20,000 nt of DNA from an uncultured virus (IMG/VR IMGVR_UViG_3300031993_000052) (lineage: Duplodnaviria; Heunggongvirae; Uroviricota; Caudoviricetes). The position numbers were made by a program, and so were the translations under genes. The notes under the pieces were generated by a model, which worked only from the letters and a program-made list of their open reading frames with translations, had not been told where the DNA came from and did not search any database. This document shows, in pieces, positions 2,835-7,362 of the stretch. Position 1 is the stretch's first letter, and each line of letters begins with the position of its first letter. Where the stretch lies: the IMG/VR virus record IMGVR_UViG_3300031993_000052, positions 55,478 through 75,477 of that record. One strand, given 5' to 3'.

Positions 2835-2947
2835 GTTTACAACCTTTACAGACCGTATGGTTACACACGGGAAGTATAACCGAACCATACGTCGGTGTGC
2901 GCTGAACCCGTATCCGCAAACGGCAGCAACCGTTCCTAATCGGACAT

Positions 2948-3333
2948 CACGGACTTTACTTTTTTATGCACCTCGCCTTTACAGCGGCACGCACACCATT
3001 TCACGCAAACCATAAAGATTGTGGACAGACTCTTTGGTGTTTATCGCTTTGTCTCCGACTTGCATCGTCGCACTTGCGGTGTGCGAGACCGTGCCTTCTT
3101 TTTTATATATGTCATCCCTTCGGGCATTGGGCAGAAAGGAAAACATAATATATTTGAGAATTTCTCTCTCACGCGCTTGCGTGGTTCCTGTCGGAATGCT
3201 CCTTTCCAATACATTGCAGGGAACACGTCCCCGCGACCGACAGTGGTCGCCCATATATCATTTCAGGGCATTGCTCCGACAACGGGATGAAAAAGCAAGC
3301 GAATCTTATGTTCGCCAAAAAATAAAGTCCGTG
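2948..3333 (-). ncRNA. Candidate large structured ncRNA (~385 nt) or cluster of smaller RNAs
   Basis: Long-range inverted repeat CACGGACTTTA/TAAAGTCCGTG encloses subdomains 2986-3095 (GGCACG/CGTGCC) and 3174-3301 (CGCTTGC/GCAAGCG). Confidence 0.45.
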
Positions 3334-3339
3334 TCGGAA

Positions 3340-3417: not shown

Positions 3418-3570
3418 GTTCAGTGCGGTATAACCCGCACGTCCAACTGTTTGTTCATCTTGGAAAGTTGTCAACCTGCACGACTTCCTTTTTTGAGTTT
3501 TCCGCGCACTGCCGAGTTGTACGGACGAAACTTGAGAATGAAAAAAAAATAGTCAAATAAAAAAACATTG

Positions 3571-3644
3571 GGTGGAGAGTGGGACTCGAACCCACGACCT
3601 ACGGAACCACAATCCGCCGTTCTGCCAACTGAACTATCCCCACC
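3571..3644 (-). tRNA. tRNA-His(GUG)
   Basis: GCGGA-TTGTGGT-TCCGT; encoded G-1 opposite C73. Confidence 0.95.
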
Positions 3645-3648
3645 AAAT

Positions 3649-4071
3649 AAGTGATTGATGTGTTGTTACACCAAATTCTCCGACGGCGGTTTCACGGACA
3701 TCTCAACGGGCGACTAACTTGGCAACTACGCCCTGCGCCGAACTTTTCTTCATAGTTCGGACACCCCCGCTTTCGCGGTGAAGATTAAGAGCAATCTCCT
3801 CTCGTACTGTCGCTCCTTATCCGTCGTACCTGTCTCCGACACCGAATTGCACTTGCGCCACATCAAGGAGACACCCGTGTTTCAACGGGATTTTAATTGA
3901 GGACAACCGTGTATTCGTGCTTGTGACTCCGTGAGGTTGCCCATACCGCACCAAGTTCGCTGGTATGGTGTTCTTGTGACGTAAATCAACTATGCGCATA
4001 GTAGTATGTAGTCACTACCTCTTGAAACTCTTTAGAGGATGGACACTATCAGTCCCACCTTTCAATCACTT
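3649..4071 (-). ncRNA. Candidate large ornate ncRNA (~423 nt)
   Basis: Perfect 10-bp terminal stem AAGTGATTGA/TCAATCACTT filling the whole His-Ser spacer; many inner hairpins (CCGAACT/AGTTCGG, CCGC-GAAA-GCGG, GTCTCC/GGAGAC, CCATACC/GGTATGG, CCTCT/AGAGG). Confidence 0.6.
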
Positions 4072-4072
4072 G

Positions 4073-4160
4073 CGGAGAGTGAGGGACTTGAACCCCCGCG
4101 CCGTTTTCACGACCTATCTGTTTAGCAAACAGACCCCTTCACCGACTTGGGTAACTCTCC
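4073..4160 (-). tRNA. tRNA-Ser(GCU)
   Basis: TCTGT-TTGCTAA-ACAGA; long variable arm; G73. Confidence 0.95.
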
Positions 4161-4165
4161 AAAAA

Positions 4166-4325
4166 AGCAAAATCTTACACAAGACGAGTTGCGCTTTAAC
4201 TCTCTTGTCCTTCGCTGTGGCGAGACCACGGATTGCTCCGCACTTTTGTTGTTAAACTTCCACAGACCCCATTCTCATCGGAATCCCAAGCGGAAAAGAT
4301 TTTATCCGCACCCTTTGATTTTGCT
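4166..4325 (-). ncRNA. Candidate structured ncRNA (~160 nt)
   Basis: 9-bp terminal stem AGCAAAATC/GATTTTGCT with several inner hairpins. Confidence 0.5.
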
Positions 4326-4327
4326 AT

Positions 4328-4472
4328 GCTGTTATGGCGGGACTCGAACCCGCAGTACCGCAGTAATCCTGAACCGCGGGCAACCTTTACGTCTCACTCC
4401 CAAGACTTCTAATCTGACCGACAATGGTGACGGTTTCAAGCGAGGGTTTGCCAATTCCCCTTCACATAACAG
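4328..4472 (-). ncRNA. tRNA-like RNA with 8-bp acceptor and a large structured insert in place of the anticodon arm
   Basis: CTGTTATG/CATAACAG acceptor, Leu-like D loop GGAATTGGCAAAC, T arm GCGGG-TTCGAGT-CCCGC; no canonical anticodon loop. Confidence 0.7.
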
Positions 4473-4491: not shown

Positions 4492-4570
4492 TAGGGGAGG
4501 TGGGACTCGAACCCACATACACCAATTACAGAATTAACGACTGTATATAAGACAGGACTGATACACCCCT
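4492..4570 (-). ncRNA. D-arm-less tRNA-like RNA (UAU loop, long variable arm)
   Basis: AGGGGTG/CTCCCCT acceptor, CTGT-CTTATAT-ACAG hairpin, perfect T arm GTGGG-TTCGAGT-CCCAC. Confidence 0.65.
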
Positions 4571-4732: not shown

Positions 4733-4738
4733 ATAGAA

Positions 4739-5099
4739 ACAAGGCGGTTTTTTTAGCGAGTACAAATTAACGGTTTGTTGCTTGAAAATAGTGGTTTGCG
4801 GAATCCGCCTTTATATGTTCAGTATTATGGAAAAAGAGAAAATTCAAAAAAACAAGGCAGGGGTTGTTAGCGAGTACAAATTAAAAGTTTGTTGCTTGGA
4901 TAGGTTTGCTGCACCTGCCTTTATTATTCAGTATTATGGAAAGAGAAGATTCAAAAAAAAAACAAGGGAGATTTGTTGCGTTTCAAAGTTACAGTTTGAT
5001 GCCTACAATGTTTGCTGAACCTCCCTTTAGATACAAGGTGATTTTTTTGCTTGGTTGAATTTGGATTTCACTTTGCAATGCGTTTGCTGCAATCACCTT
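4739..5099 (-). repeat. Four tandem CAGCAA-module RNAs with anticodon-like hairpins (4739-4811, 4852-4921, 4962-5027, 5033-5099)
   Basis: Each reads AAAG-stem-C(A/C)GCAA...hairpin...stem-CTTGT; stems differ between units but stay paired; duplicated linker ttcagtattatggaaa. Confidence 0.8.
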
Positions 5100-5513: not shown

Positions 5514-5536
5514 GTGAGGCGCGCGTCCGCGCCCGT

Positions 5537-5599
5537 ACAAGAGGCGTGATGAAATGACTTATCCCAAAAGTTTTTCTTGTTTTTTGCCGAATGCCTCTT
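5537..5599 (-). ncRNA. CAGCAA-module RNA copy 5 (CGGCAA variant)
   Basis: AAAGAGGCATTCGGCAA...ACTT-TTGGGAT-AAGT...GCCTCTTGT. Confidence 0.65.
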
Positions 5600-5605
5600 T
5601 TTTTG

Positions 5606-5719
5606 CCGCGGAGATTGGAGTCGAACCAATGTCAGGAGTTCCCAATAGCGAAAATTGCTGATAGGTTCTTTGAACAAGAATCATTTGCTACTCCCGTTCT
5701 GCCGTTAAACTACTCCGCG
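5606..5719 (-). ncRNA. tRNA body with a permuted CAGCAA module inserted in the anticodon loop
   Basis: CGCGGAG/CTCCGCG acceptor, D and T arms; GGAGT/ACTCC stem encloses ...TTCTTGT-TC-AAAGAACCTATCAGCAA...TTGGGA. Confidence 0.75.
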
Positions 5720-5721
5720 AT

Positions 5722-6058
5722 GTTCCGACATAATGTGGTGTGAACCGCTGAAACCACAATCGCACTTTCGCTGTCGGGGCGAACTCCGCTTTGTTTCTCC
5801 GGAGCGGAAAACCATCACTGCATTCGTTTTGATTAACAATATACAGCATCACGGTATCGCACCGTGCTCTCTCCGCAGGGTCGCGGGCGTGTCACTTGAC
5901 ACCTATGTTGCAGTGATTGTATGTCCTCCCGCCCGTGCCTTTGCACATTATCTGCGGATTTGTATGGACACGTTTCAAGGTTGTGCTGAAACCCGACGCC
6001 ATTCTAAATGTTATTTTAAGGAAGCGTTTAACTCTCCTAAAACTATGTGCGGCATAGT
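5722..6058 (-). ncRNA. Hairpin-dense spacer, candidate ncRNA(s)
   Basis: 9-bp ATCACTGCA/TGCAGTGAT (5814-5917) encloses three hairpins; further stems at 5722-5808. Confidence 0.45.
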
Positions 6059-6063
6059 CTTTG

Positions 6064-6215: not shown

Positions 6216-6371
6216 TGGGCAGGGAAGGATTTGAACCTCCGAACCCGAATGGGAGCGGATTGGCAATGTGGGAAATTACGAATTTCCGAAACTTCATTAT
6301 TCACATTGCGGTTTAACGTGTAACCTTCACGTAGTACAGTCCGCCGCGTTTAACCACTTCGCTACCTGCCC
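6216..6371 (-). tRNA. tRNA-Tyr(GUA) with 73-nt anticodon-loop intron/insertion (6262-6334)
   Basis: Removing 6262-6334 restores GCGGA-CTGTAAA-TCCGC and an intact class II cloverleaf. Confidence 0.9.
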
Positions 6372-6383
6372 TTATAGAATTTG

Positions 6384-6454
6384 TGGACATTACGGGAATC
6401 GAACCCGCTTTCACGCCTCCCGTTGCAGTGGGACACGCTACTGCCGTTATGCCC
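6384..6454 (-). ncRNA. D-stem-less tRNA-like RNA with Ala-type acceptor
   Basis: GGGCAT/ATGTCC with G3-U70 and A73; T arm GCGGG-TTCGATT-CCCGT; extended stem closing loop ACTGCAAC. Confidence 0.65.
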
Positions 6455-6465
6455 TTGTTGTTATG

Positions 6466-6537
6466 TGTCACGGATGAGACTCGAACTCACAATCCCCTGA
6501 TTAAAAGTCAGGTGCATCGCCATTATGCTACCGTGGC
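6466..6537 (-). tRNA. tRNA-Lys(UUU)
   Basis: CCTGA-CTTTTAA-TCAGG; C2-A71 mismatch. Confidence 0.93.
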
Positions 6538-7362
6538 ATTTTTTATTTTTTGTATTATATTTTTAATGAATCGTTCTTTACATTCTTTTGGCATTTTTTT
6601 ATACCGAGACCATCTTATTCTAAATAAACACGTCCATCCATTTTTTTGTAATACTTCAGTTCGTTTTTTGTCGTGTTTAACAATACGCTTGTCCAAATAA
6701 TGTTGTTCCCCATCAACTTCAAAATATGTTTTTGTTATTGGAAATGCAAAATCCAAAAAATACCCAAATTGATAATAATTTTGTTCATATTCAATATGTT
6801 CATCATTCAAAATTTGCTTAAAATACTTTTCACAATAACTATCACCGTGTGAATGATGATTTAATACATAAGGAACTTTATTCGGGTGCTTTTTCAAATA
6901 CTTTTTTCTAATATCAGAAAGGTGCTGTTTTTCTTGTTCAGTATGCTTTATTCCTTTTTGTGGACTTTTTAATTCACCGTTTTCATAACGGAGTTTAAGT
7001 GAAATTGCTGCTTGTTTAACACGCTCATCTGTCTCTTTTGTTAAACCTTTGTTCCACGGACGCTTACCCATCATACCATTACGATATACTCTATTTTTGT
7101 TTTGTGGACACTTACATTCGTGTGCTTTAAGTGATTTTACACTATAACATTGTTTTCCACAGTATTTACAAACAAGACTTTCATCTTTGTCGTAATGATA
7201 ATTTTCATTACTATGTTTTTTTGAATATACCGCATAACCACAAACGTGATTTTCCAAAGGTTTTCTATTTGGATTCAACTTACAAGTTCTTTCGTGAATA
7301 CCCAATGCACAAGAACGTTTTAACATTTTGTTACAATACCTACAAATATACATCATTTCCAA
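6523..7362 (-). CDS. Putative free-standing homing endonuclease (zinc fingers + NUMOD3-like + DUF559/Vsr-like nuclease)
   Basis: Two CxxC...H...C fingers, PWNKGLTKETDERV and KHTEQEK motifs, C-terminal FLDFAF...FEVDGEQH; visibly AT-richer than its neighbours. Confidence 0.8.
   Translation of the reverse strand: MEMMYICRYCNKMLKRSCALGIHERTCKLNPNRKPLENHVCGYAVYSKKHSNENYHYDKDESLVCKYCGKQCYSVKSLKAHECKCPQNKNRVYRNGMMGKRPWNKGLTKETDERVKQAAISLKLRYENGELKSPQKGIKHTEQEKQHLSDIRKKYLKKHPNKVPYVLNHHSHGDSYCEKYFKQILNDEHIEYEQNYYQFGYFLDFAFPITKTYFEVDGEQHYLDKRIVKHDKKRTEVLQKNGWTCLFRIRWSRYKKMPKECKERFIKNIIQKIKNATVA

Follow-up and report, generated by a model that had tools for sequence, protein, structure and literature searches.

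A structured RNA gene in a phage tRNA array

The DNA analyzed here (hereafter the window, a stretch of 20,000 nt) is the end of a virus record of 75,477 bases that is estimated to be 26% complete. Its first 9 kb carry 26 tRNA genes (ARAGORN), all on the minus strand, and two of them—tRNA-Ser(GCT) upstream (4072..4160, minus strand) and tRNA-His downstream (3570..3643, minus strand), both found by ARAGORN and Rfam—frame a non-coding RNA gene of 423 nt (3649..4071, minus strand), which we delimit by its terminal stem, its homologs, and RNA contigs. The gene is present in single copy, with one match to helix 43 of 23S rRNA (H43) in the 75-kb record. Sequencing runs containing the stretch are mostly from bovine gut and belong to 15 studies; the carrier is a cattle-gut jumbo phage. 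Judging from the layout, 3' processing of tRNA-Ser(GCT) would free the 5' end of the 423-nt RNA, and RNase P cleavage at tRNA-His would free its 3' end.

A preliminary description, made from the letters of this DNA, had singled out the spacer between the two tRNA genes as a large, ornate non-coding RNA, and this much holds: the RNA is conserved, lies in a phage tRNA array, and is contained in RNA libraries. Both tRNA genes flank the 423-nt spacer on the minus strand, the end-to-end stem is a perfect 10-bp inverted repeat (3649-3658 with 4062-4071), and the GAAA tetraloop hairpin is present on the minus strand (3778-3767). An open reading frame of 60 aa (3817-3999, minus strand) is not kept in a 72%-identical homolog; because that homolog has different open frames and many gaps, the frame is not a gene, in agreement with the earlier view that the spacer has no credible ORF. 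Searched against Rfam, the region returned only the flanking tRNAs at thresholds and nothing within the stretch at E ≤ 10, and neither Rfam nor ARAGORN gave a match over it that would betray a tmRNA, an RNase P RNA, or a group I intron. In folding energy the RNA does little better than shuffled sequence: the minus strand is borderline (z -1.49, with 6 of 100 shuffles equally good), and the plus strand scores slightly better (z -1.99, 2 of 100) yet is without any conserved motif. The structure described below rests on covariation, not on folding energy.

A phage-borne family with long and short forms

A complete virus record of 413 kb, reached through a neighboring vWA protein, holds the 72%-identical homolog among other tRNA genes, and the 5' end of this homolog aligns to 23S rRNA positions 1055-1105 (helices 43 and 44, H43-H44), with 3 of 500 shuffles as good. 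When the 5' end of the window's copy was aligned plainly with 23S rRNA on its own, H43 did not stand out; with the homolog and the family profile it did. A pattern joining the H43-H44 element to the sarcin-ricin loop (SRL, helix 95 or H95) at the spacing seen here then matched 17 viral loci, all of which are homologs with tRNA genes within 1.5 kb and share one anatomy—closing stem, H43, junction, H44 as far as U1090, a long insert, 1091-1104, closing stem. From the other side, a search with the SRL and the 3' half of H44 gave 30 viral loci, many of them close kin, and all 30 have H43 upstream, 240-260 nt before the SRL in 29.

A pattern for the 5' half, designed to exclude rRNA, matched 59 viral, 115 metagenome, and 3 genome sequences (177 in all, with full flanks for 80 of the 115 metagenome loci). 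Both halves were held by 141 of these, corresponding to 92 distinct cores (193-436 nt) in 46 clusters at 80% identity; the remaining 36 were dropped because the 3' half lay outside the DNA or had diverged (the Lak-like L092, L098, and L114) or because the match was due to chance (L113, L246). Among 185,579 prokaryote genomes, two of the three matches are true and both lie in one metagenome-assembled bin, and the family is therefore in effect phage-borne. An SRL-type hairpin, a feature absent from this pattern, occurs in 42 of the 47 cores of at least 340 nt as against none of the 45 shorter ones, and 28 of the 46 clusters are without it. The SRL defines the long form (~340-440 nt), which adds it to the same split H43-H44 core that the short forms possess.

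In 11 of the 18 long clusters the distance to a tRNA gene is at most 50 nt, never with the two on opposite strands, and the long form is carried by Lak megaphage records as well as by many other gut phage contigs. In two related gut phage contigs (L082 and L066), one and the same site between two tRNA-Arg genes is occupied by either a 211-nt core lacking the SRL or a 410-nt core with it; the flanks are 91% and 96% identical, and short and long inserts have been swapped at this locus. Seven inspected cultured phages—Milchi, Aeromonas 4_4572, pf16, UNO-G1W1, XacN1, CBB, and XaC1 (L247, L249-L253, and L256)—carry short forms, unannotated and lacking the SRL, and a search for the SRL form in cultured phages found none. 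Two-piece matches suggest short forms in RSP15, ME3, GAP32, and several Erwinia and Serratia phages too. The annotations of two cultured-phage records place a spurious ORF antisense to the short-form RNA.

Several other searches were set aside. BLAST of the 423-nt RNA against GenBank phages and E. coli genomes gave no match, a 16-base SRL pattern returned one identical copy and six chance matches, and relatives were found at none of seven non-identical loci reached through the neighboring 2H protein, compared with the one reached through the vWA protein. A match in a Paenibacillus phage seems to be host rRNA, and the same probably goes for those in small Staphylococcus, Listeria, and enterobacterial records; one match (L248) is intact host rRNA.

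The two ends of the RNA resemble the GTPase-associated center

By their sequence, the two ends of the RNA rebuild the GTPase-associated center of 23S rRNA (1051-1108; H43 and H44, the site of uL11 and thiostrepton), closed by the 10-bp stem, a likeness that the preliminary description missed along with the SRL inside. Reading along the minus strand, the 5' arm of the closing stem (4062..4071) stands in place of the top of H42, its last base being equivalent to 1055, and pairs at 10 of 10 positions with the 3' arm (3649..3658), its inverted repeat. It is followed by the H43 copy (4036..4060, E. coli 1057-1081) with the 1067 loop, placed by the family profile and mapped pairs (G1067 = 4050, U1072 = 4045), and by the strand of the three-way junction together with the 5' strand of H44 (4027..4035, 1082-1090), placed by family counts and mapped pairs. 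A 3-bp graft helix (4024..4026 with 3676-3678), recognized by covariation, inserts a further domain into H44 between 1090 and 1091; the rest of H44 (3658..3671, 1091-1104) bears the 1095 loop and was placed by triple covariation and pairs (U1092 = 3670, A1099 = 3663). As in the ribosome, H43 and H44 meet at a helix-closed three-way junction, with the same sequence and pairing. The differences are that the phage RNA is free-standing, with a terminal stem of its own where the ribosome has H42 and kink-turn 42, and that its H44 is split by an insert of ~350 nt; below the junction, where kink-turn 42 forms the uL10 stalk site, there is a plain 10-bp helix.

Family-wide comparison supports this assignment. 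Closing arms pair at eight or more of 10 positions in 37 of the 46 cluster representatives, compared with 4.5% of swapped arms, and on average 8.5 of 10 positions are paired between an RNA's own arms and 5.0 between swapped ones. The graft helix exists in eight versions; it is fully Watson-Crick in 44 of the 46 clusters and has a G-U in two, and 100% of its cells are paired. The purine-rich tandem mismatches after it may form a kink-junction-like element at the H44 insert. In the ribosome, C1072 contacts C1092-G1099 and G1071 contacts G1091-C1100, as described in PMC2952862. The first of these triples is U1072, U1092, and A1099 in the window's copy and reads U:U-A in 22 and C:C-G in 21 of the 46 clusters, covarying in 43; its bases sit at opposite ends of the RNA, and 1072 is absent from all search patterns. 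The second, 1071:(1091-1100), is G:G-C in 43 of 46 clusters.

Part of the conservation of H43 and H44 is forced by the search patterns. This applies in some measure to G1087-C1102 and U1090-A1101, found in 46 of 46 clusters, and among the retained loop bases (U1094 in 46, A1095 in 43, and U1066 in 45 of 46) the 3' ones were partly favored by the regular expression. U1060 and A1088 are also shared with the ribosomal domain. The junction pair U1082-A1086 is U-A in 42 of 46 clusters and C-A in this copy, where C replaces U at 1082, and in three others. Overall, this copy differs from the E. coli domain at 1061, 1067, 1069, and 1082. Its G1067 and C1097 match the 23S rRNA of Bacteroides finegoldii and Segatella hominis, not that of E. 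coli, which may be a weak hint at a Bacteroidota host.

The insert carries an exact sarcin-ricin loop

The ~350-nt insert, likewise on the minus strand, consists of two domains. Domain I (3933..4021) is bounded by a closing helix of 4-5 bp that is 100% paired with changes on both sides, and contains variable hairpins that are only predicted. Domain II (3684..3931) is multibranched, with helices paired at 98.6, 87.0, and 92.2%, and includes a hairpin with a UGAAA loop (3874-3889) and a helix (3819-3824 with 3694-3699) that carries the SRL hairpin (3787..3817), a copy of H95 recognized by its match to 23S rRNA and by covariation. The variable region after the SRL holds the GAAA tetraloop hairpin (3767..3778), at which position the closest homolog has a GUGA loop.

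The 12-nt core of the SRL, AGUACGAGAGGA at 3797-3808, is identical to E. coli 23S positions 2654-2665; allowing up to one mismatch, 0.04 matches would be expected in a shuffled window. Compared with the whole 23S rRNA, a shared 12-nt word is not significant on its own, as 6.7% of shuffles share an equally long one, and its weight comes from the particular word that is shared, from the stem it sits on, and from its conservation. The stem is 97.1% paired across the family, with six of six pairs changed on both sides and eight of eight formed in this copy. All elements of the ribosomal loop are present—bulged-G motif, C-G cap pair (in 23 of 23 aligned members), GAGA tetraloop, and stem—and the hairpin shares with H95 (2646-2674) the exact core and an 8-bp stem in the same register. 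It differs in that it lies ~220 nt from H43 and inside H44, as against ~1570 nt in rRNA, in a stem unrelated in sequence, and in a tip that varies among members.

This tip is not invariant, the exact 12-mer occurring in 26 of the 47 long cores. In 15 of the 18 long clusters the representative has the SRL hairpin, on freely covarying stems, with GAGA tips in nine, GGGA in five, and GAUA in one; the base equivalent to A2660 is hence G in five of the 15. In a sixteenth cluster, 27 of 29 members have the SRL, in another the loop is larger by one base, and the last is without the SRL, having lost it; AAGA and AAGC tips also occur, GAAA is found at one locus, and two long members have internal deletions through the SRL. 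The range of tips is narrower than a generic GNRA loop would need. Speculatively, escape from cutting or a shift in the target could explain the variation equally well.

Covariation and resemblance to 23S rRNA

On an alignment of 23 long members, RNAalifold proposed 50 pairs, 39 of them with compensatory change. In a 42-pair model, 95.3% of 955 cells are paired and 30 of the 42 pairs have changed on both sides, a level reached by none of 500 shuffles and compared with 33-48% in slid controls, although the model was built from the same alignment, in which six rows come from one cluster, and such counts are inflated accordingly; the cluster-level counts (46 clusters, closing arms) are free of the one-cluster fault. 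The comparative structure has an energy of -109.9 kcal/mol, compared with -132.9 for the unconstrained fold.

Against five real 23S genes, a profile of the long family matched the H43-H44 segment (E 1e-12 to 2e-9; E. coli 1054-1088 at E 9e-13) and, weakly, H95 (E 0.002-0.009), the sole regions of the long family with a likeness to 23S rRNA. This comparison gave no sequence counterpart of H42 and its kink-turn or of H89, H91, or H97, and nothing in domains V-VI beyond the SRL aligns better than shuffles. The RNA is thus not a colinear 23S gene or fragment: just H43-H44 and H95 match, in rearranged order, and no LSU model does. A resemblance to the peptidyl-transferase region noticed by eye (H93 and the 2500 region) was rejected, as alignment to 23S 2401-2780 was no better than shuffles, and the corresponding pattern retrieved, besides one identical copy, 13 matches lacking tRNA or homology.

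Presence in RNA libraries

Four rumen RNA runs from four studies, chosen for containing the stretch, yielded contigs across it, which give no expression level and to which DNA in the libraries may contribute. In one of them (X14), a single contig of 457 bases spans 3656-4064 with two substitutions, and its 3' end is joined back to its 5' end. The joint comprises 18 self-complementary letters, equivalent to a variant of the closing stem, in which three pairs are changed, plus a link of 4 bases; should one arm be a copy of the other, these changes would not count as independent evidence. The contig marks a discrete unit of ~427 nt, and the joint may be a true circle or a library artifact of ends held together by the stem. 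It was seen in one study only, and the neighboring spacer has the same kind of joint.

Comparison with known RNAs

Kinship with GOLLD and ROOL, to which the preliminary description had pointed, is not borne out: both are large, ornate phage RNAs near tRNA genes, a matter of setting and not of defining structure, and their Rfam models (RF02032 and RF03087) match this RNA neither at gathering score nor at E ≤ 10. They matched none of 20 diverse relatives at gathering score either, where Rfam reported only tRNA and tmRNA. Size and architecture differ too. ROOL, first found in rumen, averages ~581 nt with six junctions and three pseudoknots (PMC5737381), and GOLLD is often longer than 800 nt, both forming RNA-only cages (bioRxiv 2024.12.08.627333); at 423 nt, with family cores of 193-436 nt, the phage RNA is shorter than both. 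The sections of these sources drawn on here describe no rRNA domain in GOLLD or ROOL, though ROOL is reported to contain a sarcin-ricin-type internal loop, which in many RNAs is plain architecture (PMC13085918).

In imitating an rRNA site, the phage RNA is like leaders of the rplJ type. Ribosomal-protein leaders such as that of rplJ (L10) mimic an rRNA site to bind a ribosomal protein. They act in cis on the host mRNA, whereas the phage RNA, which belongs to a tRNA operon and has no adjoining ribosomal-protein gene, reads as trans-acting. The literature searched, outside which most subscription papers fall, describes in the text covered no phage RNA that copies H43-H44 or H95, and a survey of 10,006 viral candidate RNAs found, according to its main text, none overlapping predicted rRNA (PMC10690425); the supplements of that paper and of PMC5737381 could contain part of the family unrecognized. 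Set against Rfam and this literature, the RNA appears to be new: conserved, phage-specific, and carrying what look to be both rRNA halves of the factor-binding center.

Possible roles

In the ribosome, the site for translational GTPases is made up of H43-H44 and H95 (PMC5829649, PMC2952862); the RelA-activating tRNA is in contact with the thiostrepton loop as well as the SRL, and the SRL is a target of ribotoxins (PMC5829649). We consider it very probable that the phage RNA is a structural mimic of this factor-binding center, and the H43-H44 fold makes it likely, if less so, that it binds host uL11. As to what such a mimic does, we favor a decoy that absorbs host defense or stress proteins directed at the ribosome, a tentative reading to which we give a probability of roughly 0.45. 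Cut from the phage tRNA operon, the RNA would fold as a free-standing copy of the center, with uL11 bound to H43-H44 and the SRL held nearby by the insert, and the resulting particle would absorb host proteins that read this surface to stop translation in infected cells. Candidate targets would be SRL- or stalk-directed nucleases, glycosylases, and Rel-type ribosome sensors, and the decoy would act by analogy as phage tRNAs do in backing up those of the host. Domains of translational GTPases, uL11, and RelA/SpoT were each found in none of 18 carrier records, and a bL12 domain in one (G019:C1:131047-131247, in a record classed as a provirus); the partners would therefore be the host's. The swapping of short and long inserts is as expected of a module in an arms race. 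Against a decoy, sarcin-ricin motifs are widespread among RNAs (PMC13085918), the SRL is optional and varies at its tip, the helices that position the two elements in the ribosome have no sequence counterpart, and the proximity of the SRL to H43-H44 is something we infer. A literature search on SRL-cutting anti-phage systems gave nothing clearly on point, which leaves the attacker hypothetical.

An alternative that we consider unlikely is that the RNA draws host uL11 off ribosomes, with poor activation of the stringent factor or altered termination as the outcome and the SRL as an optional module. The loss of uL11 gives a relaxed phenotype, H43-H44 is the only universal part of the family (92 of 92 cores, by definition, as against 42 with an SRL), and all seven inspected cultured-phage copies are short ones lacking the SRL. 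For a mere uL11 binder, however, the register of the SRL, its invariant C-G pair, and its mostly GAGA or GGGA tips over 15 clusters below 80% identity exceed what architecture needs, and removing uL11 would presumably slow translation of the phage as well. No more probable is a working platform that, with uL11, docks EF-G, EF-Tu, IF2, RF3, BipA, LepA, or tRNA off the ribosome, storing these factors or triggering GTP hydrolysis and so retuning translation for phage tRNAs and mRNAs. Isolated SRL RNA is reported to bind EF-G and IF2, the affinity being micromolar, and A-site tRNA on the ribosome makes contact with both the 1067 loop and the SRL (PMC5829649); the phage RNA joins the two elements and is encoded among tRNAs. 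Yet the base equivalent to A2660 varies, a phage GTPase partner is missing from the 18 records, as are the positioning helices by sequence, and draining elongation factors would harm the phage itself. Somewhat less probable again is a miniature GTPase-activating center of ribosome-like geometry, in which the long form with uL11 would bind GTPases and trigger or block hydrolysis without a ribosome.

We give still less credence to capture of the 23S pieces simply as stable folding units of an RNA-only assembly like those of GOLLD and ROOL, with no ribosomal partners. The phage tRNA-array setting is common to all three, and sarcin-ricin motifs are widespread building blocks (PMC13085918), but exposed loop bases that matter to proteins (U1094, A1095, and U1066) are kept, and inserts ranging from ~120 to 370 nt would be hard to fit to one cage geometry. 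That the RNA is an inert spacer or a decayed rRNA fragment seems very improbable: the folding z is weak and rRNA contamination does occur in phage records (L248), but compensatory change throughout the molecule refutes the idea, 46 clusters share a split H44 with, in the long form, H95 inside it, an order found in no rRNA, and only two true copies exist in 185,579 prokaryote genomes.

Should phages indeed keep so conserved and modular a gene for a copy of the factor-binding center, hosts probably attack or monitor this surface of the ribosome during infection in ways that have not been described, and the 423-nt RNA would be a ready bait for the proteins involved. With the long form, nature offers a way of testing whether the uL11 domain and the SRL can cooperate outside the ribosome, and the short forms in cultured phages make genetics possible now.

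Other features of the tRNA array

Several further features lie nearby, all on the minus strand. Upstream of tRNA-Ser is a second stem-closed spacer RNA of ~165 nt (4161-4330; z -1.9, no Rfam match), a diverged version of which forms an end-joined contig in RNA run X14. Beyond it lies a tRNA-framed RNA (4330-4470) with a long arm at the position of the anticodon loop, missed by default ARAGORN and Rfam and with a 74%-identical counterpart in another genome (G006), and then a degenerate tRNA (4492-4570) that scores 29.1 bits, at the Rfam threshold, and has no ARAGORN call. A tRNA gene of 156 nt (6216-6371), Tyr-like by eye, has an insert of ~73 nt in its anticodon arm (Rfam 47 bits, with an intron call).

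A DUF559-type endonuclease gene (6523-7362) sits inside the array and shares 68% DNA identity with G006; an ARAGORN tmRNA call at 6383-6765, which overlaps tRNA-Lys and this gene and has a 16-bit Rfam score, is probably false. At the end of the array, a 2H phosphoesterase-like gene (304-816) has sub-cut-off matches to 2'-5' RNA ligase and to the anti-CBASS protein Acb1, and the short-form RNA of XacN1 likewise follows a gene annotated as 2'-5' RNA ligase. Two spacers of ~500 nt lacking a credible ORF (2835-3339 and 5514-6062), each represented by a long contig in RNA run X5 and with no Rfam family at gathering score, are possible further non-coding RNAs. Finally, the region 4735-5080 holds several related short elements, each closed by a stem that ends in a T-run, with counterparts in one of the homologous loci (L036).
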